Positions 12,090-63,599 of a stretch of 64,000 nucleotides of DNA are shown here, piece by piece. The notes under the pieces were generated by a model. The model worked only from the letters and a program-made list of their open reading frames with translations. It was not told where the DNA came from and searched no databases. The stretch comes from an uncultured Gemmatimonadota bacterium. Lineage in GTDB: Bacteria > JAAXHH01 > JABIQT01. How positions within the stretch are numbered: the first letter of the stretch is position 1; each line of letters starts with the position of its first letter. The DNA lies in the NCBI GenBank assembly GCA_964470965.1, contig CAYYIS010000001.1, forward strand, positions 79,247-143,246. The letters are read 5' to 3'. The position numbers were made by a program, and so were the translations under genes.

Positions 12090-14954
12090 CTATGCCCTTA
12101 ATCGTTCACCTTCCGGATCATAAAACGGCTTGTTGTAAACATGAGCAGACGCATAACCATGATCCAGATGAATCGTTAGCGGCTGCCCTTCCTCTGCCAA
12201 GCCGGATGGCACCCAGGCCATTCCTATACCCCTGCCTACGCCGGGGCTGTAACGGAAGCTGGTGACGCGGCCGACGGAATTACCATTCGCTACGATCGAG
12301 TTGCCGTCCACCACCTCTGCATCTTCGTCCACCATGATGCCCACCAGTTTATTTTTCAGGCCCCGCTCTTTCACTCGCATCAGCGCTGCTTTGCCTATAA
12401 AATCCTTTTTCCTGAAATGTACCACCCAGGACATATCCGCTTCAAGTGGGTTGGACAGCGCGTCCGTATCCTGTCCTACGATGATGTGCTTCTTCTCCAA
12501 ACGTAGCAGCCGTTGAGTATCCACACCAAACGGAGCGATGCCGTTGGGCCTGCCGGCTTCCATCAGCGCATTCCAGAGCGCCGGGCCGTGCGCGGCAGGC
12601 GTATGAATCTCGTACCCCAATTCCCCAACGAAGCCGATGCGCAGCATCAACGCCGGAATGCCCGCGATCTCGCCTTCCGGTGCATCCATGTAAGGGAAGG
12701 CTTTGGTGGACAGGTCCATATCCGTTACGGTAGCCAGTACTTCGCGCGATCGGGGCCCGGCCAGGTTTACAGCGGAATAGCCGGCGGTGACGTTGGTGAC
12801 CGCCACGTCCATATCGGTTCCTGCGGTCCACCACTCCAGCCATTCATGAACGAATTCAACATTGCCGCTCGTCGTGGTGATGAAAAAGTGATCATCCGAA
12901 AGCCGAGTGACGGTGCCATCGTCGACGATGATACCGCTGTCATCACACATCACTCCGTAGCGAACTCGGCCCGGTTTGAGAGTTTTTAAGCGGTTGGTAT
13001 AGACTTTGTCCAGCAGTCGCTCTGCGTCCTTCCCCTTGATGTCCAGTTTGCCCAGCGTTCCCACATCGATAAGGCCTACACGTTCGCGTACTGCTCTGTA
13101 TTCGTCTGTGACAGATGTATAAACCTTCGGTCGCATCCACTGTCCCATGCCCATCTGTTCGGCGCCCAACCCCACGTGCACATGGTGAAGCGGTGTATAC
13201 ATAACCGGCTCTTCGATGGCGCCGGCCAGAGCGCCAAACGAGATCGGTGTCACAGGTGGGCGGGATGTGGTGGTGCCGGTCTCATCGATTGTGCGTCCGG
13301 TCTGACGCGCACACAAGTGGATAGAAGCCATGGCGCACATTCGCCCTTGGCAAGGGCCCATGGACAGCGTGCTGTATCGCTTGAGCGTCTCGATGTGTTC
13401 ATATCCCTCTTCAATGGCGTCACAGATATCTTTTTCGGTTAGATCCTCGCATAGACAAACGAATTTTTTCTTGTCTTTATGGGAAATGGTTATGAGGGAT
13501 GGTGCCTTCTTCGGTTGCTCCTGAAGCTCGGCCGCACGACATCTGAGTTCGTCGCATCGTCCGATAGTCTCTTCATCCCCGAATCCTAGGTCATTCGCTG
13601 CCTGTAGTCCGGCCGCCTGTCCTTCACACTTGTGCGCGTCCGCTCCGTGAGTCCCGTTCACATCACCGGCTACGGCTACGGAAGGCGGTAGTGCACTCGG
13701 TACGAATCTACCGAGCTCCGGATCAAACTTTAATTTTCCGCCGGACTGGTAAATCAACCCCGCCGCCGCTTCAAAGCCAGTTGATACCACGATCAGGTCA
13801 CAGGCGATGTGCTGTTCCGTACCGGGCATTGTGTTCCCATCCGCATTGAGTTGCACGAGGGCTGCGCCATTCACATTTCGCCCCCCGCTGGCTTCAGATA
13901 TTGTATGGCCGTGGAGCATCCGCGCGCCTGATTGCTGCAATGCTTCGGTTACCGGATGATTCGGAAAAACCTCCCGTGCGTCTACCACGGCTTCGATGGT
14001 CACGCCTGCTTCCAGCAGGTCCGCCGCAACCGCCAGCCCGTAGTCGTTATTCGTCACGACCACGGCCCGTTCACCCGCCACGACGCCGTCCAGGTGTAGC
14101 ATCCGCTGTACGCCGCTGCCCAGCATGACGCCGGGGAGATCGTTGTTCTTGAAGATCAGCGGATGCTCGAACATCCCAGTCGCTATGATGGTTCGCTTTG
14201 TCCGGATCTGGATTACCCGTTCTCCCTGCACAACGCCGACCAGGTCACCTTCGTAGAAACCGAACGCGGTGGCATTCAGAAACGTCTCGATGTTCGGTTC
14301 TGTCGCCAACTCCGCTGCTAGCGCCCGTGCGCTGTCTTCCGTCCGTCCGAACCTGAGGTGTCCCCCAATTGACGTCTGATCGTCCACCAGCACCACTTCC
14401 GCCCCGGCCCGTGCCGCTTGCAGGGCCGCCGAGATGCCGGCTGGGCCGCCACCAATCACCATTACATCCGAATGTCGGTATTCTTTCCGATAATCATGCT
14501 CCGGTACCGTCTCTATGTCGACCTCTCCAAGCCCTGCTATTCGTCGGATAACCGACTCGTACACCGGCCAAAGCCACCGCGGCCGGATCATGCTCTTGTA
14601 GTAGAAACCCACCGGCATTAACGCTCCAAACGCCTGGATCGCCGAAAATACATCCGTCTCCACCGATGGCCAGGCGTTCTGCCCATGGATCTTCTGTCCT
14701 TCCTGCACCGGCGTCATACATGCCCGGACATTGGGTTCGCCATTCACGTTCACCATACAATTGGGACACCTACCGGCCATACAAAGTAACCCGCGCGGCC
14801 GATGGTATTTGAAACTTCGGCTGAATATCCGAACCCCAGCCCCATACATCGCCCCTGCGATCGTCTGCCCCTCTCGGGCAAGGATCTGGCGGCCTTCATA
14901 GGCGATGGAGACCGGTGCAGGATTTTCTACCTCTTTGTTCTCTAGGTGGTTCAA
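12090..14954 (-). CDS. soxA: sarcosine-oxidase alpha-like subunit (mgdC-type)
   Basis: 954 aa. N-terminal 2Fe-2S-like segment (HRPRGLLCMAGRCPNCMVNVNGEPNVRAC), FAD/NAD fold (VMVIGGGPAGISAAL), C-terminal aminomethyltransferase (GcvT) domain. Confidence 0.9.
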   Translation of the reverse strand: MNHLENKEVENPAPVSIAYEGRQILAREGQTIAGAMYGAGVRIFSRSFKYHRPRGLLCMAGRCPNCMVNVNGEPNVRACMTPVQEGQKIHGQNAWPSVETDVFSAIQAFGALMPVGFYYKSMIRPRWLWPVYESVIRRIAGLGEVDIETVPEHDYRKEYRHSDVMVIGGGPAGISAALQAARAGAEVVLVDDQTSIGGHLRFGRTEDSARALAAELATEPNIETFLNATAFGFYEGDLVGVVQGERVIQIRTKRTIIATGMFEHPLIFKNNDLPGVMLGSGVQRMLHLDGVVAGERAVVVTNNDYGLAVAADLLEAGVTIEAVVDAREVFPNHPVTEALQQSGARMLHGHTISEASGGRNVNGAALVQLNADGNTMPGTEQHIACDLIVVSTGFEAAAGLIYQSGGKLKFDPELGRFVPSALPPSVAVAGDVNGTHGADAHKCEGQAAGLQAANDLGFGDEETIGRCDELRCRAAELQEQPKKAPSLITISHKDKKKFVCLCEDLTEKDICDAIEEGYEHIETLKRYSTLSMGPCQGRMCAMASIHLCARQTGRTIDETGTTTSRPPVTPISFGALAGAIEEPVMYTPLHHVHVGLGAEQMGMGQWMRPKVYTSVTDEYRAVRERVGLIDVGTLGKLDIKGKDAERLLDKVYTNRLKTLKPGRVRYGVMCDDSGIIVDDGTVTRLSDDHFFITTTSGNVEFVHEWLEWWTAGTDMDVAVTNVTAGYSAVNLAGPRSREVLATVTDMDLSTKAFPYMDAPEGEIAGIPALMLRIGFVGELGYEIHTPAAHGPALWNALMEAGRPNGIAPFGVDTQRLLRLEKKHIIVGQDTDALSNPLEADMSWVVHFRKKDFIGKAALMRVKERGLKNKLVGIMVDEDAEVVDGNSIVANGNSVGRVTSFRYSPGVGRGIGMAWVPSGLAEEGQPLTIHLDHGYASAHVYNKPFYDPEGERLRA

Positions 14955-15036
14955 TATCGAATAACTCCGTGTTGTGATTGACGAATTGTACGATCATTCC
15001 GTGTCTTCTGGATTATCCCGGTAATCAAACAATCCG

Positions 15037-15294
15037 TCAACCCATTCGCTGTCTCTCTGACTCTATAATCTCATTCTTTGCCGTATCCCTCATCGCCTGA
15101 AACCAGATCTTACATCCCGATCGATGGTGCCACCACTCTGCCTGGCGCCCTGATTCGTTTTTTCGGATGTAGAGATAATCCGTCCACGTCTCCCCGGATG
15201 CGGACACATCAGGCCGTTCCTGCACCTCTCCGCCGAATCTGAATTCATAGACGTTGCGCGGTCCGCAGATGGGACAGGTAATTAGAAATGACAT
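15037..15294 (-). CDS. soxD: sarcosine-oxidase delta-like subunit (mgdB-type)
   Basis: MSFLITCPICGPRNVYEFRFGGE... zinc-ribbon N-terminus typical of SoxD. I chose the internal ATG over the longer ORF start. Confidence 0.8.
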   Translation of the reverse strand: MSFLITCPICGPRNVYEFRFGGEVQERPDVSASGETWTDYLYIRKNESGRQAEWWHHRSGCKIWFQAMRDTAKNEIIESERQRMG

Positions 15295-15434
15295 GACTGC
15301 CTTTCTGTTGGGATTAAACGGTAAAGCTAGACTGAAATTAAAGTGCGGTACGGTGTTTCCCCTGGAAGGAGGCCCCACCGTCTCGGGAGTGATAACGTAA
15401 TTTATACCGGGTAACGCGCCAATTCATCAGTCTG

Positions 15435-16805
15435 TTAATCATCTTTCTCGTTCCACCCCGGCCCGCCGCCGAACACCCTTCTCGTTCCTACCAGTGGGAT
15501 GCCCGTAATCATGGAGGCTTCCAGGGTGAGGGCGCGCATATCTTCAGGTTCCAGATCATGGACGTCCGCTTTACCGCAGGCGCGGGCGAGCATCTGGATT
15601 TCCATGATAGTGGCGGAGAGAAAGTTGGCGGCCCGTTCCGCGGCTTCATCGATAGGCAGGCGCTTCATTAATTCCGGATCTTGGGTGGCGATGCCTACCG
15701 GACACATGCCGGTGTGGCAGTGGTGACAGGCGTGGGGTTCCGCGCCGAGGGCGTGGTAGTCCTCTTCATAGATCGGCTTGTTGCAGTTCAAAGCGATGAG
15801 TGCCGCAGTCCCTACATATATGGCATCCGCACCAAGCGCCATGGCTTTGGCGGCATCGACACCGTTGCGTATGCCGCCTGCGATAATGAGCTGTACCTCT
15901 CCATACAGTTTCATGTCCTCCAGCGCCTCACGGGCCTCACAGACCGCTGCCAGCGTCGGGATGCCGGTATGGTCCATCAGGATATCCGGCGAGGCGCCGG
16001 TGCCGCCTTCCATGCCGTCTATCGCGATAATATCTGCCCCGGCTTTCGCCGCCAGCTTAACGTCATCATATACACGCGATGCGCCTATTTTTACGATGAT
16101 CGGTACCTGCCAGTCGGTGGCCTCCCGCAGTTCTTCAATTTTGATAATCATGTCGTCCGGCCCCAGCATATCCGGATGCCGGCACGGACTCCGCTGATCC
16201 ACGCCCACCGGTAAATCCCGCATTTCCGCGATTTGGTTCGACACTTTGGAGCCCAGGAGCAAACCACCGGTTCCTGGTTTGGCACCCTGGCCAATGGTTA
16301 ATTCAATCCCGTCCGCCATCTGCAGGTGATGGACGTTGCATCCGTATCTGCTTGGCAGCACCTCGTAGATCAGAATTTCCGAGTTCTCTCGCTCCGCCGG
16401 AAGCATGCCACCGTCACCGGTGGTGGTGGAGGTGCCCATTTTTGTGGCGGCCCGTCCCAGCGCCACCTTGGCGTTGTATGAAAGGGCGCCGAAACTCATG
16501 CCGGTTATCATAACCGGAATATCGAGCTCGATCGGTTGTTTCGCGTATCGAGTACCCAGGACTGTCTTTGTGTCGCAGCGCTCGCGGTATCCCTCTAGTG
16601 GAATGCGGGTCAGCGTACAGGGGATGAAAGTCAGGTCGTCCAACGAGGGCAGCGCCCGTTGCCGCAGTGTCCCGAACCCCCGTAACCGGTACCTTCCGAG
16701 ATCCGCTTTCTCCTGCACCTCCGCGATCGCCTGCGGACTCCATAGCGCTCCCTGCCGTAGGACCCTCACCTCCTCCGGTGTATGCTCTGTCTGGTGCTCA
16801 CTCAC
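15435..16805 (-). CDS. mgsC: glutamate-synthase FMN-domain protein (N-methylglutamate synthase subunit C-like)
   Basis: GltB domain-2 homology (GQGAKPGTGGLL, DGMEGGTGASP). Confidence 0.85.
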   Translation of the reverse strand: MSEHQTEHTPEEVRVLRQGALWSPQAIAEVQEKADLGRYRLRGFGTLRQRALPSLDDLTFIPCTLTRIPLEGYRERCDTKTVLGTRYAKQPIELDIPVMITGMSFGALSYNAKVALGRAATKMGTSTTTGDGGMLPAERENSEILIYEVLPSRYGCNVHHLQMADGIELTIGQGAKPGTGGLLLGSKVSNQIAEMRDLPVGVDQRSPCRHPDMLGPDDMIIKIEELREATDWQVPIIVKIGASRVYDDVKLAAKAGADIIAIDGMEGGTGASPDILMDHTGIPTLAAVCEAREALEDMKLYGEVQLIIAGGIRNGVDAAKAMALGADAIYVGTAALIALNCNKPIYEEDYHALGAEPHACHHCHTGMCPVGIATQDPELMKRLPIDEAAERAANFLSATIMEIQMLARACGKADVHDLEPEDMRALTLEASMITGIPLVGTRRVFGGGPGWNEKDD

Positions 16806-30876: not shown

Positions 30877-31641
30877 CTATCCGCCTTGCTCCTCTTTCAA
30901 TTCTTCCAGCAGGCGCTTGGCCAGGTCTACGCAGGCGACGGCGTCCTTACCGGTGCCGTCGGCGCCCATGTCGTCGGCGAATTCCTGCGTTACCGAGGCG
31001 CCACCGACCATGATTTTTACATCGTCGCGCAAATCCGCGTCGATGAAGGCGTCAATGGTTTTACCCATGTTGGGCATGGTGGTGGTGAGCAGGGCCGACA
31101 TACCGACCAGCGGTGCTTCGTGCTCTTCCACTGCGTCGATGAATTCGTCCTCGGAGGTATCCACGCCTAGATCGTGTACCTCCATGCCAGAGCCGCGCAG
31201 CATCATGATGCACAAGTTTTTTCCGATGTCATGCAGGTCACCTTTGACCGTCCCCATGATGACCGTCCCGATGGGCTTGATGCCCGAGGCGGACAGTATC
31301 GGTTCGATGTAGGCCATGCCGGCCTTCATGGCCCGGGCGCAGGCAAGGACTTCCGGGACGAATATGAAGTTCTCCCGGAACTTGATCCCTACGATACTCA
31401 TTCCGGCGATGAGCCCGTCATCCATGATCTCCAACGCGTCGGTGCCCGCATCGAGAGCAGCACCGGTCATTTCATCTACACTGTTGTTGTCACCATCAAT
31501 GAGTGCCGCGGCTATTTCCTGCATGGCCGGCGACGTTCCGGAAAATACATTGATGATACGCTCCCGGTCAGCGGGAGCTTCAATAAATTCCTCTATCTCA
31601 TCCCTGATAAACTCATTCTCTATCGCGTTTATGTCCGGCAT
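30877..31641 (-). CDS. corrinoid (cobalamin-binding) methyltransferase carrier protein
   Basis: B12-binding cap helix bundle followed by a Rossmann domain with the DxHxxG motif (KGDLHDIGKNL) and MSALLTTT. GAGGAAG lies before the ATG. About 35 extra N-terminal residues. Confidence 0.88.
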   Translation of the reverse strand: MPDINAIENEFIRDEIEEFIEAPADRERIINVFSGTSPAMQEIAAALIDGDNNSVDEMTGAALDAGTDALEIMDDGLIAGMSIVGIKFRENFIFVPEVLACARAMKAGMAYIEPILSASGIKPIGTVIMGTVKGDLHDIGKNLCIMMLRGSGMEVHDLGVDTSEDEFIDAVEEHEAPLVGMSALLTTTMPNMGKTIDAFIDADLRDDVKIMVGGASVTQEFADDMGADGTGKDAVACVDLAKRLLEELKEEQGG

Positions 31642-45153: not shown

Positions 45154-45990
45154 TCAAGCGGCGGGAATGTCCTTACCTTCCCCGATCAACACACAGGCCG
45201 CACCCAGCCCAACAATACCGGGAACGTTAAGCGTTCCGGAACGCCAACCTTTTTCCTGGCCGCCACCATCGATCAGTGGCACAAGGTTTATTCTGGGCTT
45301 TCGGCTTCGAACGTACAACGCGCCGACACCGGGCGGTCCGCCTATGCCGTTTCCATCAATGGATAGTAGATGGATATCATTTGCCTGCACATCTATCGTA
45401 TGATGCTCTACGATATCCGTGGCATCGACATGGAAGAAGACATCCGCGCTCTTCGCCAGTCTGCCAGTGGTCACGATCCGCTCCGGAATATCGTGTCCGT
45501 TTGGCCGGAGCGAAAGGGTGATAAAATTGGTGCAGTCTGTAATCGCAGCCCGTAACGTATCCGGGTCAGGGCACCCGGTTTCATCCGCTTCAAGCCGGGT
45601 GACGTAATAGTTCCCTTCTTCTTCCAGGACCAGACATGTTTCGAGAATGGACGGATGGGCGCAGGTTGTCGTTATGATGTGATTACCGCGATGGGCGTAT
45701 GTTTCCGCAACCCCGTTGACAGCCAAAATGTTGGACTCGCCACCACCGCTCGAAAAAATTATCTCCCGCCCTGCCCGTGCGTGGATCATGCCCGCGATTT
45801 GTTGCCGCGCGTAATCACAGGCGTCCTGTGCCGCCCAGCCGAAGGAGTGGTTCAGACTGGCCGGGTTGCCGAATCGATCCGTCAAATAGGGCAGCATGGC
45901 ATCGAACACGCGGGGGTCCGTCCGCCGAGGATCATGACCCGGTGTGAAATCATATGTTGCTGCCATGGCCATATATCCTCTCGCCCACAC
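45154..45990 (-). CDS. truncated, PLP-lysine-less cysteine-desulfurase (NifS/IscS)-like ORF (pseudoenzyme or gene remnant)
   Basis: Aligns by eye with IscS residues about 1-280 (FGNPAS..H.FGW, HVDAT, GPPGVGALYVR, RSGTLNVPGIVGLG). SGHK is replaced by DGNG, and the C-terminal third with the catalytic Cys loop is absent; the next gene starts 22 nt downstream. Confidence 0.7.
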   Translation of the reverse strand: MWARGYMAMAATYDFTPGHDPRRTDPRVFDAMLPYLTDRFGNPASLNHSFGWAAQDACDYARQQIAGMIHARAGREIIFSSGGGESNILAVNGVAETYAHRGNHIITTTCAHPSILETCLVLEEEGNYYVTRLEADETGCPDPDTLRAAITDCTNFITLSLRPNGHDIPERIVTTGRLAKSADVFFHVDATDIVEHHTIDVQANDIHLLSIDGNGIGGPPGVGALYVRSRKPRINLVPLIDGGGQEKGWRSGTLNVPGIVGLGAACVLIGEGKDIPAA

Positions 45991-46190
45991 CCCAATTCCT
46001 TCTCAAAGCCCTCAATAATATGATTTAAACAGTCCACAGTCAAGTCAAATCTTAACCATAACATAAGGATTTGATTAAAGGTTATGCTATGTTTACGACC
46101 GTGATTTTTCAGGTCAGGATTGACACGGTACTCTACAGACCCTATTGTAAAGAAGCTTTTAGACCATGCGACCGTTATGAGGAGCCTGTC

Positions 46191-46904
46191 TTGAATTCAA
46201 TAGTGGTATTTGCAAAGGATCCACGGCCCGGATCCGTTAAGACGCGCCTCACGCCGTTTCTATCGCCGGAAGAAGCGGCTGATCTCTATAAGGCGTTGAT
46301 CCGGGACACGCTTCGGACAGCATTATGCGTGCCCGGGGCGCAAACCAGGGTCGCGTTCACGCCGGAAGAAGCGGAGACGTCCCTCTGGTCGCTGGCCGAA
46401 AGCAAAGCGATCGAATGGTTTCCTCAGTCCGGCGATTCTTTAGGCTCTCGGCTTCAGGCAGCATTCCACCATGCTTTTCAACATGGTGCCTCCCGGGTGG
46501 TGACGATCGGCAGTGACTGCCCGTCCTTACAGCCTTCCGTACTGTCATTGGCTCTCGATGCTCTGTCGGGATCGGATGTGGTGCTGGGACCTGCCACGGA
46601 CGGTGGCTATTATCTAATTGGATTGGCCAACAAGGGATCCGAAAACGATCGGTATAGAACGCTATTCAAGGATATCGCCTGGAGTACGGAAACAGTCTAT
46701 GAGCAGACACTCGAGGCCATTGACGACCTTAGGCTTTCGCTCATGGAACTCCCGGAGTGTTCCGATGTGGATCAGCCGGCGGATCTCCTGCGGCTGATCC
46801 GTCAGATTCGGTCGCACAGGGATGCCGGTGATCTGGAATTCGCAATGCATACGGAGCCCAAGCTTCACGCCCTCCGCGCTAGAATCGAAACGGCATCAAT
46901 ATGA
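46191..46904 (+). CDS. DUF2064-family (nucleotidyl/glycosyl-transferase-like) protein
   Basis: IVVFAKDPRPGSVKTRLTP...A..LY.A...DT pattern. TTG start 6 nt after GAGGAG. Stop overlaps the next start (ATGA). Confidence 0.65.
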   Translation: MNSIVVFAKDPRPGSVKTRLTPFLSPEEAADLYKALIRDTLRTALCVPGAQTRVAFTPEEAETSLWSLAESKAIEWFPQSGDSLGSRLQAAFHHAFQHGASRVVTIGSDCPSLQPSVLSLALDALSGSDVVLGPATDGGYYLIGLANKGSENDRYRTLFKDIAWSTETVYEQTLEAIDDLRLSLMELPECSDVDQPADLLRLIRQIRSHRDAGDLEFAMHTEPKLHALRARIETASI

Positions 46905-48283
46905 ACGACGATCACCAAATAAAGCGAATTCTCTCGAGACTTCCCTCCGTCAACACTCTCCTGCAACATCCGGTGCTTGCTGCAATCAGTGACGATCACC
47001 CTCGGCCCTTCATAACCGACTCGGTGCGGTTTGTACTGAACGAAGTCCGTTCCGGCATCCTTGGGCGCTCGGATCCACCGGCCGATATTTCAGAAGAGGC
47101 ACTTGTTCAGAAGGTTATAGCTAACATCGGAAAACATGGCGCATCGACTGTACGACCTGTGATAAACGCTACTGGTATTGTATTGCATGATGCGGTGCGT
47201 GCCGCCATGGTCACAGACGCCGCGCGGAATGCAATGATTGAAGCACTGCACCCGGGTATTTCAGATACAGAGACCCGGGCGGAAAAGGCACTCTGTGAGA
47301 TTACCGGTGCCGATGCTGCGTGTCTCCTGCACAGCGACCTGGCTGCGTTGTGGGTTGCGATCGATACGTTTGGGCGCGGAATGGAAGTTGTAATATCCCG
47401 CAGCCATATGGGAGCGCAAGGGACGATACGCATGATGGATCTCTTCGATCGCTGCGGGGTGCATGTGATTGAAGTCGGCGCTACGAACAAGACCCATCTG
47501 AAAGACTACCGGGCGGCCCTGAACGATCGTACCGGCGCCATAGTAAGTATTCAGCCTGCGACCTATGCATTCCGGGGTTTTGCCCAGGATGTTGCTCCGG
47601 AAGATCTGGCTGCTCTTGGCACAAAATATGATGTGCCAGTGTTGCTCGCGGCAGGCCTGACAACATTGACCGCCCCGCCAGTTTCATCCTGGCAGCCGGC
47701 TCTTACGTTAGAGAAAGCGGTCCGATCCGGTGTGTCGATAACGTTAACCGGCAGTGGATTGACCGGCGCACCGCCGTGCGGTATTGCTATCGGGCAATCT
47801 GCTATGATAGTACGTATGAAGCAAAACCCTATGGCCCATTTCCAGGGGGGCGGTCCGGCGGTCTATGCCGGTATGGAAGCGGCATTGCAATCTTTCGATT
47901 TTGCCACGGCAGGCCTTGACCAGCATCCTGCCGGTCGTATGATTCTGGCATCTTCCGATCATGTAAGAGCCAAAGCGGAGCGACTTATGAATCTATGCTG
48001 CGCCGAGCTTGGTCATACAACAACGCTGGATCTCATCGAGACCACCTCCCACCTGACCGGCGTGCGCCTCCCTTCCGAATCCCTCCCCGGATATGGAATT
48101 TCAATACGTCCCGACGCGACAAAGGCGGCATCCCTCTCAAAACTGTTCTATAAATGTACTCCGGTCCTTCTCACGAACTTCGAGGGTGATCGTATCATAT
48201 TAGATCTACGTACGGTTGAAGACACAGAGTTGGAGACCGTAAGCCGTCTCTTAACATCTGTTCTTAAAAACACTTGTATATAA
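46901..48283 (+). CDS. SelA (selenocysteine synthase)-like protein lacking the PLP lysine and other catalytic motifs
   Basis: Colinear with SelA (LPSVNTLL, RPVINATG.VLH, EVGATNKTHLKDY). HTNLGRA becomes HDAVRAA, NNNAAA becomes HSDLAA, and FSGDKLLGGPQAG becomes LTGSGLTGAPPCG. The ORF is intact at 460 codons. Confidence 0.75.
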   Translation: MNDDHQIKRILSRLPSVNTLLQHPVLAAISDDHPRPFITDSVRFVLNEVRSGILGRSDPPADISEEALVQKVIANIGKHGASTVRPVINATGIVLHDAVRAAMVTDAARNAMIEALHPGISDTETRAEKALCEITGADAACLLHSDLAALWVAIDTFGRGMEVVISRSHMGAQGTIRMMDLFDRCGVHVIEVGATNKTHLKDYRAALNDRTGAIVSIQPATYAFRGFAQDVAPEDLAALGTKYDVPVLLAAGLTTLTAPPVSSWQPALTLEKAVRSGVSITLTGSGLTGAPPCGIAIGQSAMIVRMKQNPMAHFQGGGPAVYAGMEAALQSFDFATAGLDQHPAGRMILASSDHVRAKAERLMNLCCAELGHTTTLDLIETTSHLTGVRLPSESLPGYGISIRPDATKAASLSKLFYKCTPVLLTNFEGDRIILDLRTVEDTELETVSRLLTSVLKNTCI

Positions 48284-48358
48284 AAACACGGTACCGTATA
48301 TTACTCGTCTGTGTTTTTAAATATGCAACGGATCTGCTGACATACGAAGGGGAATACC

Positions 48359-49222
48359 ATGACTCTGCAGCAGGCCAAAGCTGATATTATCCATGTGGGC
48401 CGGCGCATGTACGACCGGGCCTATGTTGCGTCCAATGACGGCAATATCAGCGTGCGGCTTTCGGATGATCGCCTTCTGGTGACTATGACCGGTGTTAGTA
48501 AAGGCTTCCTTACACCCGATCAGCTTATCGTCATCGACTATGACGGGAATGTAGTCTCCGGCAAGTACAAACCCTCCTCCGAGATCAAGATGCACCTGAT
48601 GGTGTATCAGGAACGGCCGGATGTCCACGGTGTCGCCCATGCCCATCCACCTACTTCTACCGGATTTTCGGTTGCGGGGATACCGCTCGTAGATTGTCTG
48701 TTGCCGGAAGTGGTCGTAACGCTCGGGTCCGTACCGATCGTCGAATACGGCCTGCCCGGTTCGATGGAACTGGTAGAGCCGATCCGGAAGTACGTCCACG
48801 ACTATGACGCCTTTCTCCTGGAAAACCATGGTGCCCTGACCATAGGCCCCAATGTGATCAATGCATATCACAAGATGGAAACCATGGAACATTTCGCTAA
48901 CATCTCCCTTACGGCGCGCCTTCTCGGTAACGTAAACGTTTTTGGACAAGAAGACGCGGAGAAATTGATGGGCCTGCGTGAGCGCTTCGGCGTGACGACC
49001 AAAGCGGTCTGTCAGTTTCGGGAAGGTCAGAGTATCAGTCAACCCCCTTCTCCTTCTTCGGTACCCATCATGCCCTCAAATAAAGGCGCGGATCCGGAGA
49101 ATGAACCATCTCAGGAAGAACTGGTCCGACGCATTACGCAGGAAGTTGTGAGTCGTCTGCGAGACACGGACGGCGGTGCCGGTGAGGATGGAGGGCAGGC
49201 GAAGATTATCCCTGTTAGGTGA
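48359..49222 (+). CDS. class II aldolase (fuculose/rhamnulose-1-phosphate aldolase-like) with C-terminal encapsulation-peptide extension
   Basis: Zn motif GVAHAHPP and LENHGALTIG. About 65 aa tail: a Pro/Ser linker, then the amphipathic helix EELVRRITQEVVSRLR. Confidence 0.88.
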   Translation: MTLQQAKADIIHVGRRMYDRAYVASNDGNISVRLSDDRLLVTMTGVSKGFLTPDQLIVIDYDGNVVSGKYKPSSEIKMHLMVYQERPDVHGVAHAHPPTSTGFSVAGIPLVDCLLPEVVVTLGSVPIVEYGLPGSMELVEPIRKYVHDYDAFLLENHGALTIGPNVINAYHKMETMEHFANISLTARLLGNVNVFGQEDAEKLMGLRERFGVTTKAVCQFREGQSISQPPSPSSVPIMPSNKGADPENEPSQEELVRRITQEVVSRLRDTDGGAGEDGGQAKIIPVR

Positions 49223-52018: not shown

Positions 52019-53449
52019 GTGAATATGAATGAACGTCAAATCCAGGCAATTGTTCAAGAGGTTATCGCGGAACTTGGCGGACGGAAAAACGGATCGGTGT
52101 CGCCTGTTCCTTCCGGTGGACGATATGGTCAGTTCGCGGGGATTGATGATGCTATCGCGGCGGCGGAACGATCGTTTCACCTTCTGCAGGAAACATCGCT
52201 CGAAATCCGCGAAAAAATGATCGCTGCCATGCGTCAGATAATCTTGGAAAACAAAGAAACCCTGGCCAAGATGGGCGCAGAAGAAACCGGCATTGGCAAC
52301 TGGGAAGATAAGATCAACAAACATATCGTCGCAGCGACCAAGACGCCGGGATTGGAAGATATCTCCCCGGAAGCCGTAACCGGAGACCACGGACTGACGG
52401 TCACCGAGCGGGCGCCGTACGGCGTCATTGGCTCTATCACACCGATGACCAACCCGTCCGAGACTATTGTCAACAATGGTATTTGTATGATCGCCGCCGG
52501 AAACGCAGTCGTCTTCAACGCGCACCCGAGCGCCAAACGTGTGACCATGAAGGCCGTGGAGCTGATGAACCGGGCTATCGTCAACGCCGGTGGCCCCGAT
52601 AATATTCTGGTCGGTGTAGCGGATCCGACGCTCGATACCGCCCGGGTTCTGATGACGGATCCCAGAATCCGCCTGCTTGTGGTGACCGGTGGTCCCGGTG
52701 TCGTCAAGGCGGCGATGGCCAGCGGAAAAAAGGTGATCGCCGCCGGTCCCGGTAATCCTCCTGTAGTGGTGGATGAGACTGCGGATCTGGAAAAAGCGGC
52801 CAAATCGATCGTGGATGGCGCAACGATTGACAACAATATCTGCTGCATGTCCGAAAAAGAGATTATCGTTGTCGATTCGGTGGCTGACGAACTCAAACGA
52901 CATTTAGAGAATTACAAAACAGTGGAACTGACAGGCGGACAGGTCAAGGCTGTCACGAATCTGATATTCGACGAGTGGGAGGGTGTGGGGTGTAAGGATG
53001 CGGTGTTGAACCGAAAATTCATAGGTCAACCGGCATTGAGCATATTGAAAGAACTCGGAATTCCCGCTCCGCCGGATACACGGTTGATATTGATAGAGAC
53101 GGCGGAAGACCATCCGCTGGTCTGGAAAGAACAGATGATGCCGGTGATGCCGCTCGTACGTGTAATTGATGTAGATCAGGCCATAGAATTTGCGAAAGAA
53201 GTCGAACAGCAGTGCTATCATACCGCACTCATGCATTCCCGCAACGTTGAGAAATTGAGCAAAATGGCTCGGTATATGAACACTACCCTTTTTGTCAAAA
53301 ATGGGCCGTCCTATGCGGGTCTCGGCTTCGGAGGTGAAGGCCCGACCGCGTGGACGCTCGCCAGTCCGACCGGCGAAGGTCCGACCATGCCGCGCACTTA
53401 CACGCGGCCGCGTCGTTGTGTATTGGTCGATTCATTCAGGATCGTATAG
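52019..53449 (+). CDS. CoA-acylating aldehyde dehydrogenase (PduP/EutE family) with N-terminal encapsulation peptide
   Basis: N-terminal helix ERQIQAIVQEVIAELGG plus linker. Catalytic Cys context IDNNICCMSEKEIIV. Confidence 0.9.
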   Translation: MNMNERQIQAIVQEVIAELGGRKNGSVSPVPSGGRYGQFAGIDDAIAAAERSFHLLQETSLEIREKMIAAMRQIILENKETLAKMGAEETGIGNWEDKINKHIVAATKTPGLEDISPEAVTGDHGLTVTERAPYGVIGSITPMTNPSETIVNNGICMIAAGNAVVFNAHPSAKRVTMKAVELMNRAIVNAGGPDNILVGVADPTLDTARVLMTDPRIRLLVVTGGPGVVKAAMASGKKVIAAGPGNPPVVVDETADLEKAAKSIVDGATIDNNICCMSEKEIIVVDSVADELKRHLENYKTVELTGGQVKAVTNLIFDEWEGVGCKDAVLNRKFIGQPALSILKELGIPAPPDTRLILIETAEDHPLVWKEQMMPVMPLVRVIDVDQAIEFAKEVEQQCYHTALMHSRNVEKLSKMARYMNTTLFVKNGPSYAGLGFGGEGPTAWTLASPTGEGPTMPRTYTRPRRCVLVDSFRIV

Positions 53450-53469
53450 CGCAGGATTACCGGGTTCTC

Positions 53470-53760
53470 GTGGACATAGAACGCCTTATCGCTATTATCG
53501 TGAAGACGGTCGTTGAAGAGCTCGCACGTCAGGGTTTCATCAAGGCTACCGGGCGCCCGAACCCTCCTGGCGTATCGAATACCGTTTCAGATGCGGCAAC
53601 AGAAACCGCAAAGAGCCGAAAAAGGGTTGTTTCCGCTGAGATGGTTCTGGAGGTCGCCAGGGCTGGCCATATTGAGCTCGAAGTGGCCTCGGACGCACTG
53701 ATCACGCCGCTGGCGCGGGACACGGCGAAGGAAAAAGGCCTCACCATACGACGAACATGA
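53470..53760 (+). CDS. small BMC-locus protein with N-terminal encapsulation-peptide-like helix
   Basis: GTG start. MDIERLIAIIVKTVVEELARQG, a low-complexity linker, then a roughly 45-aa C-terminal domain (VVSAEMVLEVARAGHIELEVASDALITPLARDTAKEKGLTI). Confidence 0.55.
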   Translation: MDIERLIAIIVKTVVEELARQGFIKATGRPNPPGVSNTVSDAATETAKSRKRVVSAEMVLEVARAGHIELEVASDALITPLARDTAKEKGLTIRRT

Positions 53761-54685: not shown

Positions 54686-55705
54686 ATGGATGATGTTTAT
54701 CCGGTCGGCAAGCTGCCCGCCAGGGATTTGGAACGCCTCCTTTCCCGCTTCACCGGTGAAGAGGATGACCGTATTGTTGTCGGCCCCGGTATCGGTGAAG
54801 ATGCGGCAGTCATCTCGTTTGGGAACACTGCGCTGGTCGCCAAGACCGACCCCATTACTTTCGCCACCGACCATATCGGATGGTACGCCGTACATATCAA
54901 TGCCAACGACATAGCGTCCATGGGCGCCGTACCTAAATGGTTTCTGGCAACCCTCCTACTGCCGGAGGGGAGGACAACACCTTCGCTTGTAAACACCATC
55001 TTCACCGGTCTGACCGATGCGTGTGCTGACCTGAATGTCACATTGTGCGGCGGACACACCGAGATCACCCACGGGTTATCGCGTCCCATCATCATAGGTC
55101 AAATGCTGGGTGAAGCCGACGCAGACCGGGTTGTATCCGCCGCCGGCACACAGGTCGGCGATGAAATCATCCTCACCAAGGGTATCGCGATTGAAGCTAC
55201 CGCATTGATAGCGATCGAGAAAGGAGAACAGCTGGCCGGCGAGTATCCGGAATCTTTCCTTTCACGATGTAACAACTACCTCAAGGATCCTGGCATAAGC
55301 GTGGTAAAAGATGCCCGTGTCGCTGTTGAAACCGGCGGTGTGCACGCCATGCATGATCCCACCGAGGGTGGCCTCGCCAGCGGTCTTCACGAACTGGCCA
55401 AAGCCTCCGGCACCGGTCTTCTGCTCGAAGCGGACCGGGTGCGAATCCTTCCGGAAGCCGAGATTCTGTGTCGGAGATATGGCCTGGATCCACTGGGAAC
55501 CATCGCTTCCGGAGCGTTATTGATCACGTCCGATCCGTCTTTTACCTCTTCTATCATCGAACAGCTGAAGGAGGCAAATATCGCCGCGGAAAAAATCGGA
55601 GTGATCCAGGAGGCGAAATTCGGTTGTAAGATGAAACGCCGCGGAAAAGTCACCGAGTTGCCGATGTTTAATCGGGATGAGATTGGAAAAATCTTTGAGC
55701 AGTAA
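54686..55705 (+). CDS. AIR-synthase-related (PurM/HypE/ThiL superfamily) protein
   Basis: GIGEDAAV, NDIASMGA, GGHTE, DPTEGGL motifs. Lacks the SelD N-terminal Cys/Lys motif and the HypE C-terminal Cys. Confidence 0.75.
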   Translation: MDDVYPVGKLPARDLERLLSRFTGEEDDRIVVGPGIGEDAAVISFGNTALVAKTDPITFATDHIGWYAVHINANDIASMGAVPKWFLATLLLPEGRTTPSLVNTIFTGLTDACADLNVTLCGGHTEITHGLSRPIIIGQMLGEADADRVVSAAGTQVGDEIILTKGIAIEATALIAIEKGEQLAGEYPESFLSRCNNYLKDPGISVVKDARVAVETGGVHAMHDPTEGGLASGLHELAKASGTGLLLEADRVRILPEAEILCRRYGLDPLGTIASGALLITSDPSFTSSIIEQLKEANIAAEKIGVIQEAKFGCKMKRRGKVTELPMFNRDEIGKIFEQ

Positions 55706-62741: not shown

Positions 62742-63599
62742 ATGAATTGCGCATTGGATGAAGTGGTGGACACGCTGAATAGAGACGGTGTAGTAACCGT
62801 AGAAGGGGTGTTTACCGACAGTGAGATGGATCAGTTCCGCGGGCACCTGAGACAGACGATCGACGAAGCCTCTCAGGTTGAGATGTACAAAGGCCGTCCA
62901 ACAGACAAACTTCTGGGTAGGTCGAACGATACGATCTGGTTGCTTTGGGATTTGTATGCCGTCTGCGAGGAAGGGCTCAAATTCACCCGTCACCCTGCGA
63001 TCCTGGCGTTTTTGGAGGCTGCACTAGGGGAACCGATAGTACATGCCAGCATGGGCACTATGTTCGATAAGGTTGCCGGCGGTGATGCGGCAATCGGATG
63101 GCACCAGGATACGTTTTTCATTCTCGTACCGCCGGAAGGGAAGGACATAAACCTGGATGATTACTGGCATCAGTTCGGGCATGTCAACGTGCGACCAAAC
63201 CAGATGAGATTCGAAGAGGATTATTATAAAAAGACCATCATCGTCCGTATTAACGTGGACCCGCAGACACTGCAGAACGGATGCATGCGCGTCATCCCAG
63301 GCTCGTATCTTGAAGGGCCGATGGAACTCAAAGGGGGGCAAGACGAATACCTGGCCACCCATGAGGCGGAGGCGATTGACTGCACTGCGGGGCAGGGTAG
63401 TGTAACGTTCTATTATCCGACTACGTTTCATGCCTCCTCAATCAGTACAGCGCCTACTGGCACCCACCGTTGTGCGGCGGCGCACCGGGTCCGGGCGCAG
63501 AACCTGAAAATTCCGGAATGGGACTGGCCTTCCGATTGGGAACCGGGATGCGTCCCGGCCATACCCGAATCCGGATTTGCGCTCAATCCATTTATATAG
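62742..63599 (+). CDS. phytanoyl-CoA dioxygenase (PhyH) family Fe(II)/2-oxoglutarate oxygenase
   Basis: GWHQDTFF (HxD) motif. ATG follows GGGAG. The upstream part of the 62616 ORF is probably not translated. Confidence 0.7.
   Translation: MNCALDEVVDTLNRDGVVTVEGVFTDSEMDQFRGHLRQTIDEASQVEMYKGRPTDKLLGRSNDTIWLLWDLYAVCEEGLKFTRHPAILAFLEAALGEPIVHASMGTMFDKVAGGDAAIGWHQDTFFILVPPEGKDINLDDYWHQFGHVNVRPNQMRFEEDYYKKTIIVRINVDPQTLQNGCMRVIPGSYLEGPMELKGGQDEYLATHEAEAIDCTAGQGSVTFYYPTTFHASSISTAPTGTHRCAAAHRVRAQNLKIPEWDWPSDWEPGCVPAIPESGFALNPFI

Follow-up and report, generated by a model that had tools for sequence, protein, structure and literature searches.

SelA, the selenocysteine (Sec) synthase, is a pyridoxal 5′-phosphate (PLP) enzyme that forms a ring-shaped homodecamer. 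Residues of the stretch EVGATNKTHLKDY mediate the dimer-dimer (pentamer) contacts of this ring, according to Itoh et al. 2014 as far as that study is cited in PMC4607533, and in the account given there mutation of the Thr192, Asp199, and Arg174 contacts depentamerizes Aquifex aeolicus SelA. The orphan SelA of Helicobacter pylori no longer has the N-terminal tRNA domain or the dimer-dimer contacts, although Lys285 and Arg86, Arg312, and Arg315 are still present, and an alternative PLP enzyme activity has been proposed for it (PMC4607533). The SelA-like protein considered here is encoded in a 64-kb stretch of DNA (contig CAYYIS010000001.1 of an uncultured Gemmatimonadota bacterium), the whole of which is called the window below; coordinates come from its open reading frame (ORF) listing and from direct reading of the letters. 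The gene, 460 codons for 460 amino acids at 46901..48283 on the plus strand, was assigned by family scores, alignments, and a structural model, and lies between a DUF2064 gene and a bacterial microcompartment (BMC) operon. Because its catalytic residues are lost, its ORF is intact in diverged orthologues, and its ratio of nonsynonymous to synonymous substitution rates (dN/dS) is well below 1, the protein is, on sequence evidence, a pseudoenzyme (a dead homologue kept by selection) and neither the product of a pseudogene nor a Sec synthase.

Family and fold are evident from profiles and from modeling. Among Pfam profiles, SelA (PF03841) matches residues 87-439 with 184.8 bits and the SelA N-terminal domain (PF12390) matches residues 11-50 with 35.9 bits. 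Against the TIGR00474 equivalog model the protein scores 240.5 bits, below the cut-off of 267.9, and the orthologue from locus L094, a lineage discussed below, scores 178.7 bits. An AlphaFold2 (AF2) model built from a 79-sequence alignment reaches a predicted local distance difference test score (pLDDT) of 90.8 and a predicted template modeling score (pTM) of 0.80, with a helical N-terminal domain visible, and it aligns with full-length A. aeolicus SelA (3W1H_A), N-terminal domain included, at a template modeling (TM) score of 0.84. An earlier annotation made from the letters alone (the sequence-only reading) had described an intact, SelA-derived ORF, and the full-length homology to both Pfam domains and the predicted fold bear that description out.

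The active site within this fold has been replaced almost throughout, as seen in residue-level alignments to Escherichia coli SelA (8UZW), A. aeolicus SelA (3W1H), and 105 non-redundant true SelAs. Functional residues, in Aquifex numbering, are those listed by Itoh et al. to the extent that PMC4607533 relays them. Lys285 (Lys295 in E. coli), which forms the Schiff base with PLP, is Gly286 in the window protein, FSGDK having become LTGSG. Asp284, which positions Arg86, is Ser285; Ser282, a PLP phosphate contact, is Thr283; and the selenophosphate-binding residues Arg312 and Arg315 are His313 and Gly316. The 11-residue active-site loop with the GxRGxR motif, whose Arg119 positions Arg312, is deleted. 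Conserved motifs have fared no better: NNN is now HSD (NNNAAA to HSDLAA), VHxSN is IQPAT (KVHxSNY to SIQPATY), HTNLGRA of true SelA reads HDAVRAA, and GGGSLPxE has become xLTxxRLPxE across the clade of lysine-less proteins to which the window protein belongs. The lost Lys, the two Arg residues, NNN, His, and Asn are each at least 92% conserved in the 105 true SelAs, most of them 99-100%, and the position of the PLP lysine, Lys in 99% of true SelAs, is Gly, Ala, Glu, or Ser in all clade members examined. An Arg beside the Arg86 position is retained, as in E. coli SelA. The replaced catalytic motifs and the missing lysine, both claimed by the sequence-only reading, therefore hold up in the profile and residue alignments. 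Judged by these alignments, the fold is intact and the use of PLP or selenophosphate in the manner of SelA is gone.

The same loss is found wherever the protein has relatives. A word-indexed search returned 8 of them at 36-99% identity before a drop to ∼30% for true SelA, a profile search of 1.84 billion representatives found further clade members, and a further search, started from the most divergent branch, brought in another 48 clusters at the 90% identity level. The clade now holds >60 protein clusters, and the lysine is absent from every one, its former motif reading GDG, GSG, GGG, GGS, or RSE. The metagenome-assembled genomes (MAGs) of the clade represent uncultured marine bacteria and are labeled Latescibacteria or Gemmatimonadetes by their depositors; when the clade alignment was run against species-representative genomes, no clade members were among the matches listed, true SelA being dominant. 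In a neighbor-joining tree the clade is monophyletic and split from true SelA with bootstrap 60/60, which speaks for a single origin. The mean distance within the clade is 1.26 versus 0.87 among true SelAs from many phyla. The members nearest true SelA, those of loci L084 and L090, lack the lysine yet retain Asp, the arginine pair, and some of the loop. This fits an initial Lys-to-Gly change that was followed by drift or remodeling of the remaining PLP and selenophosphate site.

Selection on the reading frame can be followed across the same set. All 13 loci inspected have an uninterrupted ORF, with proteins that are 25-81% identical, and no frameshift or stop was found across the >60 clusters at 25-99% identity. 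Nei-Gojobori estimates from four pairs with unsaturated dS give a dN/dS of 0.19-0.40 for the SelA-like gene (0.40 in the lineage without BMC genes, 0.19-0.28 in the others), 0.16-0.35 for the DUF2064 gene, and 0.03-0.10 for the aldolase gene that follows. Within the SelA-like protein the ratio stays <1 in all three parts (N-terminal, core, and C-terminal), and for the lineage of the window it is lowest in the core domain (0.11-0.21). The argument for selection that had been drawn from the length of the stop-free frame is thus sustained by substitution rates and by the orthologues.

The invariant partner of the pseudoenzyme is the product of the DUF2064/TIGR04282 gene directly upstream (46191..46904, plus strand), an apparently intact ORF for 237 amino acids that begins with TTG at 46191, 6 nt behind a GAGGAG ribosome-binding site (RBS). 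A longer mechanical ORF from 46071 is not taken as the gene because of this TTG and RBS and because its extension, 46071-46190, which we read as non-coding, holds a promoter-like site at 46120..46148 on the plus strand. That site, found by consensus scan, is of the sigma-70 type (TTGACA-17-TATTGT) and would serve the DUF2064/SelA-like bicistron; L001, L002, and L091 carry the same sequence 5′ of their DUF2064 genes, and L094 carries a closely related one. The two genes share an ATGA stop/start overlap at 46901..46904 on the plus strand, which suggests translational coupling. An overlap of 4-17 nt is kept in 10 of the 12 other loci, the exceptions being L002 (gap of 19 nt) and L091 (gap of 87 nt). 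From the SelA-like stop at 48283 to the aldolase ATG at 48359 the gap is 75 nt, so that the DUF2064 start, the overlap, and the spacing given by the sequence-only reading were all reproduced in the window sequence.

The pairing itself recurs, as had been proposed for a check: DUF2064 stands directly 5′ of the SelA-like gene in 13 of 13 loci and neighbors selA in none of 80 true selA loci, which served as negative control. The DUF2064 protein scores 196.5 bits against TIGR04282 (cut-off 134) and 114.8 bits against PF09837, and none of the 21 residues found invariant in 73 family members has been lost from it. Its AF2 model (pLDDT 94.8) has 3CGX as first Foldseek match (TM 0.86), followed at TM 0.64-0.68 by FbiD/CofC (6BWG, 7P97), guanylyltransferases that act on phosphoenolpyruvate, 3-phosphoglycerate, and 2-phospholactate. 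It is, by score and by predicted structure, a bona fide TIGR04282 member with a CofC/FbiD-like nucleotidyltransferase fold. The family is large (>7000 hits), and a literature search on 'DUF2064' found no paper and no demonstrated activity for any member. Its names differ between databases: 'rSAM/selenodomain-associated transferase 1' at JGI and 'arsenosugar biosynthesis glycosyltransferase' at NCBI. The link to selenium or radical S-adenosylmethionine (radical-SAM) loci that the sequence-only reading had named is accordingly present in the JGI name, but it does not extend to SelA, the name referring to a radical-SAM neighbor with a Sec-containing domain.

What the SelA-like protein has kept lies outside the catalytic center. 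True SelA and the clade have in common VINATG and the motif EVG(A/T)TNKTxxxDY, which carries Thr192 and Asp199. The sequence-only reading was right to count EVGATNKTHLKDY as a SelA motif; any catalytic role for it falls away, because it carries the dimer-dimer contact residues. Asp202, Thr195, and Arg177 of the window protein correspond to Aquifex Asp199, Thr192, and Arg174, and within the clade Asp202 is invariant and Arg177 mostly retained. Other Aquifex ring-contact positions are replaced, Thr191 and Tyr220 both by Ala. In the N-terminal domain Pro15, Val17, Arg43, and Arg50 are conserved in the dead clade and in true SelA; the roles of these N-terminal and ring features are those given in PMC4607533 and PMC11047290. 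A ring scaffold built from the SelA-like protein is conceivable because the pentamerization residues (Asp199, Thr192, and Arg174 in Aquifex numbering) are kept, and the scaffold role that had been called conceivable from the letters stays at that strength.

On balance we consider it probable that the protein is a SelA-derived pseudoenzyme that serves the CofC-like transferase as a non-catalytic partner, probably in oligomeric form. Purifying selection has preserved the ring contact motif EVGATNKTxxxDY along with the overall SelA fold and its N-terminal three-helix domain. The bicistron would be transcribed from its own predicted sigma-70-type promoter, DUF2064 first, and the two products may form a stoichiometric complex. 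In such a complex the DUF2064 transferase would be the catalytic subunit and the SelA-like protein an oligomeric adaptor, anything from a dimer to a decameric ring, that presents or binds a substrate, possibly RNA or a phosphorylated small molecule.

Several observations weigh against this proposal. The complex, the oligomerization, and the ligand are inferred rather than directly evidenced. Selection on the SelA-like gene is 4- to 8-fold weaker than on the adjacent aldolase gene. RNA binding is uncertain because the N-terminal domain is weakly constrained (in the lineage of the window it has the highest dN/dS of the three parts, 0.37-0.51) and because PF12390 goes undetected by Pfam in the large L094-type subclade. 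The co-occurrence with DUF2064 and aldolase genes could reflect inherited gene order, all 13 loci being widely syntenic. Finally, newly conserved residues at the old active site could mark a new ligand site or new chemistry.

These residues are the ground for a second explanation, which we regard as unlikely: that the SelA-like protein is neofunctionalized, with the old PLP site turned into a new ligand or catalytic site (Cys293 and Arg218/Thr221) of a PLP-independent enzyme or a metabolite sensor. Arg218 replaces a His that is 95% conserved in true SelA, Thr221 replaces an invariant Asn, and Cys293 replaces Ala in the GGPQAG loop, 7 residues past the lost lysine. In a set of 20 non-redundant clade members, each of these clade-specific residues, at positions of the former active site, reaches a conservation of at least 90%; Cys185 and His342 are further conserved residues of the clade's own. 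The strong constraint on the core domain in the window's lineage also speaks for it. However, the window protein itself has Gln at position 218, other active-site positions are free to vary (GDG, GSG, GGG, and RSE at the lysine motif), and no ligand or chemistry can be named. A bolder combination is improbable: an RNA-binding SelA-derived ring with a pocket rebuilt around the new Cys and Arg would form, together with the CofC-like nucleotidyltransferase, a new two-protein machine that could nucleotidylate or otherwise modify the 3′ end of a tRNA or another RNA, or else a phosphorylated metabolite of the C3 or sugar type, and would be genetically tied to the fuculose/rhamnulose-phosphate aldolase pathway in Latescibacterota-like bacteria.

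The relation of the pair to the genes downstream begins with DNA rather than protein. The class II aldolase gene (48359..49222, plus strand; PF00596, 163.8 bits) is the first gene of a PVM-like BMC operon, which continues with acetate kinase, PduL, one BMC-H, three BMC-P (EutN), and acylating aldehyde dehydrogenase genes. Its predicted promoter, at 48252..48302 on the plus strand, has a -35 hexamer TTGTAT (48274-48279), a 17-nt spacer, and a -10 hexamer TATATT (48297-48302); the upstream element and the -35 hexamer sit within the last codons of the SelA-like gene. The pattern GAAAAAC[AG]CTTGT[GA][TC]A-17-TATATT is present in 13 of 13 loci (12 by scan, the window included, and L094 by eye), the hexamers following TTGTRY-17-TATATT across loci. 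In the window and 8 other loci the upstream half of the promoter encodes the final ...L-K-N-T/A-C residues, with V or I and then the stop next in 6 of these 9. In L086, L091, L093, and L094 the same promoter DNA is non-coding and lies 30-80 nt past the SelA-like stop. Between the window and L001, 29 of the last 33 nt are identical, compared with 48% gene-wide and 29% at third codon positions. The tail VLKNTC[VI] is thus conserved because its codons are promoter DNA. The peptide LTSVLKNTC[VI] had been considered as a BMC encapsulation peptide or as a carrier of a reactive C-terminal Cys; both ideas were rejected, since in four loci this DNA does not code for protein and supplies the -35 hexamer and upstream element of the promoter. 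The C-terminal helix of the SelA-like protein likewise failed the encapsulation-peptide test, being the normal last helix of the SelA fold in the AF2 model. The C-terminal helix of the DUF2064 protein, a further candidate, was set aside as well, as it occurs across a wider TIGR04282 branch that includes Poribacteria- and Gemmatimonadota-labeled proteins.

Most loci also conserve a stretch 3′ of the aldolase -10 hexamer, AGGCGTCTGTGTTT, which could be a transcript start or an operator. A second window match to the upstream motif of the promoter, at 31209-31222 on the minus strand, is a chance match within a coding region and has no -10 hexamer. The consensus scan of the window found no terminator-like site between the SelA-like gene and the aldolase operon, so that transcription may read through from the pair into the BMC operon.

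A third explanation takes the proximity to this operon at face value and makes the SelA-like protein a BMC accessory, such as a ring-shaped cargo organizer, scaffold, or regulator of the PVM-like microcompartment downstream. In every BMC-bearing locus seen (the window, L001, L086, L090, and L091) the pair lies on the same strand and immediately 5′ of the aldolase/BMC operon, and in L090 it is still attached to that operon although the upstream region is rearranged. The absence of a terminator-like site between the units and the somewhat higher dN/dS in the BMC-less lineage (0.40 versus 0.19-0.28) point the same way. The aldolase gene is directly 3′ of the pair in all 11 of the loci whose sequence reaches that far. 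The neighborhood as a whole is syntenic, however, with DHH, Bmp, and ABC transporter genes upstream and HU, an AIR-synthase-like gene (AIR, aminoimidazole ribonucleotide), DUF494, topA, and xerC downstream, and adjacency is for this reason weak evidence of function. Locus L094, on a 4.2-Mb contig, keeps the order DUF2064, SelA-like, aldolase, HU, and has no acetate kinase, PduL, shell, or aldehyde dehydrogenase gene in the 16.7 kb of the locus. It represents the 48-cluster subclade, which keeps the lysine-less ORF and is nested among BMC-bearing branches in the neighbor-joining tree, so that the likeliest history is one in which the BMC was lost and the pair retained. The BMC operon also has its own conserved promoter, the C-terminal tail is explained at the DNA level, the DUF2064 helix is family-wide, and SelA goes unmentioned in the BMC catalogue PMC8217296. 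These points make an accessory role quite unlikely. Pairs do stand beside BMC loci in the window, L001, L086, L090, and L091, a recurrence that the sequence-only reading had put forward for a check, but not in L094, and the functional tie it had hinted at by placing the pair at the head of the BMC locus is not supported: the predicted promoters are separate, the tail is promoter DNA, and the L094 pair has no BMC genes adjacent. We read the pair as inherited with the class II aldolase gene yet not dependent on the microcompartment, whose operon, as predicted, starts at the embedded promoter.

The aldolase does differ between the two kinds of locus. In BMC-bearing loci it has a C-terminal extension of ∼75 amino acids resembling an encapsulation peptide (49000-49222 in the window), with an amphipathic helix EELVRRITQEVVSRL and a conserved extreme C terminus GQAKIIPV[RK]; in L093 (1831-2463) and L094 (10212-10844) it is 210 amino acids long and lacks the extension. 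The N terminus of PduL has a helix, EERIKAVVRETVVRVL, that resembles the one in the aldolase. In L090, from a Latescibacteria MAG, a DUF4432 gene, a protein-kinase fragment, a 78-amino acid ORF, and a PemK-family toxin gene lie between acetate kinase and PduL (13428-15688). The window ORF at 53350-53760 (plus strand), which separates the aldehyde dehydrogenase gene from the last two EutN genes, is without a Pfam match and only weakly (23 bits) matches TIGR02536, the model of a hypothetical ethanolamine-utilization protein; in other BMC loci its position is taken by a gene for 90-99 amino acids, also without Pfam match.

Selenium machinery is missing from the surroundings of the pair. With SelB from true selA loci as query, tblastn of the window gave no match, and with SelD it gave only a generic AIR-synthase-like ORF at 31%; ARAGORN found no tRNA-Sec in the 64 kb, and an Rfam scan of the same stretch at gathering thresholds gave no match at all. 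In sum, the window has no selB, selC, selD, or second selA, and the flanks of the 13 loci have no selB, selC, or selD; the sequence-only reading had likewise seen no selB, selD, or selC in the window. The AIR-synthase-related ORF (54686..55705, plus strand; 339 amino acids) is equidistant from the HypE, ThiL, and SelD models and below the cut-offs of all three. The idea that it is a dead SelD is unsupported, the protein scoring below the SelD cut-off and lacking the N-terminal GCGCK. It is 66-70% conserved, and in all loci, the BMC-less L094 among them, it follows the HU/IHF-like gene. ARAGORN also called an 88-nt tRNA-Gly(ccc) at 63482-63569 on the minus strand; it has no Rfam match, so the call could be spurious or the tRNA atypical.

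Active enzymes that work with a dead paralogue are well known: LCB1 (SPTLC1) of serine palmitoyltransferase is a fold-type-I PLP paralogue without the Schiff-base lysine and the conserved non-catalytic partner of the active LCB2. By analogy, a canonical SelA and tRNA(Sec) could be encoded elsewhere in the genome, with the dead copy as a regulatory paralogue that enters mixed oligomers or sequesters Ser-tRNA(Sec). We consider this very unlikely, as the 64-kb window has no selB, selC, selD, or second selA, the invariant partner is DUF2064 and no sel gene, and constraint on the N-terminal domain is weak.

A second dead PLP protein is found close by. The truncated IscS-like protein (45154..45990, minus strand; 278 amino acids), divergent from the pair in orientation, has neither the PLP lysine nor the catalytic Cys loop; its IscS/NFS1 alignment ends near residue 268 of 404, and SISGHK has become SIDGNG. 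In L086 (2593-3759) the IscS-like protein is full-length at 388 amino acids and has lost both the Lys (GPA) and the Cys (SGSAC to AGVFR). It is truncated in L001 (8250-9065), L002, and L089 (176-988) and absent in L090, L091, and L094; a 170-amino acid ORF upstream in L090 that had been considered as an IscS remnant encodes a tetratricopeptide repeat protein. The truncated form has a dN/dS of 0.19-0.24. The short-chain dehydrogenase/reductase (SDR) gene next to it is intact in L086, in two fragments in L001, and gone in the window. Its sequence and distribution mark the IscS-like protein as a facultative neighbor of the pair and not a core part. The last explanation, that the SelA-like gene is a decaying relic of an ancestral selenium cluster (selA with a NifS/IscS-like gene) that has no present function, would suit the fast evolution of the clade, the decay of the IscS-like gene across lineages, and the fragmented SDR gene of L001, but it is effectively refuted by ORF integrity in the 13 loci and >60 clusters and by a dN/dS well below 1 in all domains, together with the clade-specific conserved residues.

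Reading the protein as a pseudoenzyme has practical consequences. MBI4551757.1 at NCBI (P0121) and the JGI members of P0123 and P0124 are named 'L-seryl-tRNA(Sec) selenium transferase', other members 'hypothetical protein'. The label 'SelA' is wrong for members of this clade, and because lysine-less proteins bear it, selA-based surveys of the Sec trait would be misled for these lineages. The conserved peptide tail, whose codons contain a promoter, could in turn be mistaken for an encapsulation peptide. For DUF2064/TIGR04282 the obligate pairing offers an experimental entry point to a family that database names link to radical-SAM/ArsS-type neighbors.

A literature search found no paper describing a lysine-less SelA. 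With SelA (TIGR00474; 3W1H, 8UZW) the protein shares the N-terminal three-helix domain, linker, fold-type-I core, and C-terminal domain, as well as VINATG and EVG(A/T)TNKTxxxDY with its pentamerization residues; it differs in the replacement of Lys285, Ser282, Asp284, Arg312, and Arg315, the missing Arg119 loop, the replaced NNN, VHxSN, and GGGSLP motifs, and the lack of sel genes nearby. DgaE, archaeal MJ0158, and Cap15-type proteins are likewise PF03841 members, but they are PLP enzymes without the N-terminal domain; against the DgaE model the SelA-like protein scores 16 bits (cut-off 385), and its TM score to 7LC0 and 8T7J is ∼0.55-0.59. LCB1 resembles it in lacking the lysine and pairs with its active paralogue LCB2, whereas the invariant partner here is an unrelated protein of nucleotidyltransferase fold. 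The orphan SelAs of H. pylori, Helicobacter acinonychis, and some Frankia (Cravedi et al. 2015, PMC4607533) also evolve under relaxed purifying selection outside a Sec-decoding context, with a dN/dS of 0.24 compared with 0.19-0.40 here, and they are also annotated as SelA in databases. In what has been kept, the present clade is the mirror image of the H. pylori and Frankia orphans, retaining the N-terminal domain and ring contacts and losing the lysine and the arginines. Taken together, the two cases show that, once Sec synthesis is lost, SelA can hold on to its RNA-binding/ring module or to its PLP module separately.

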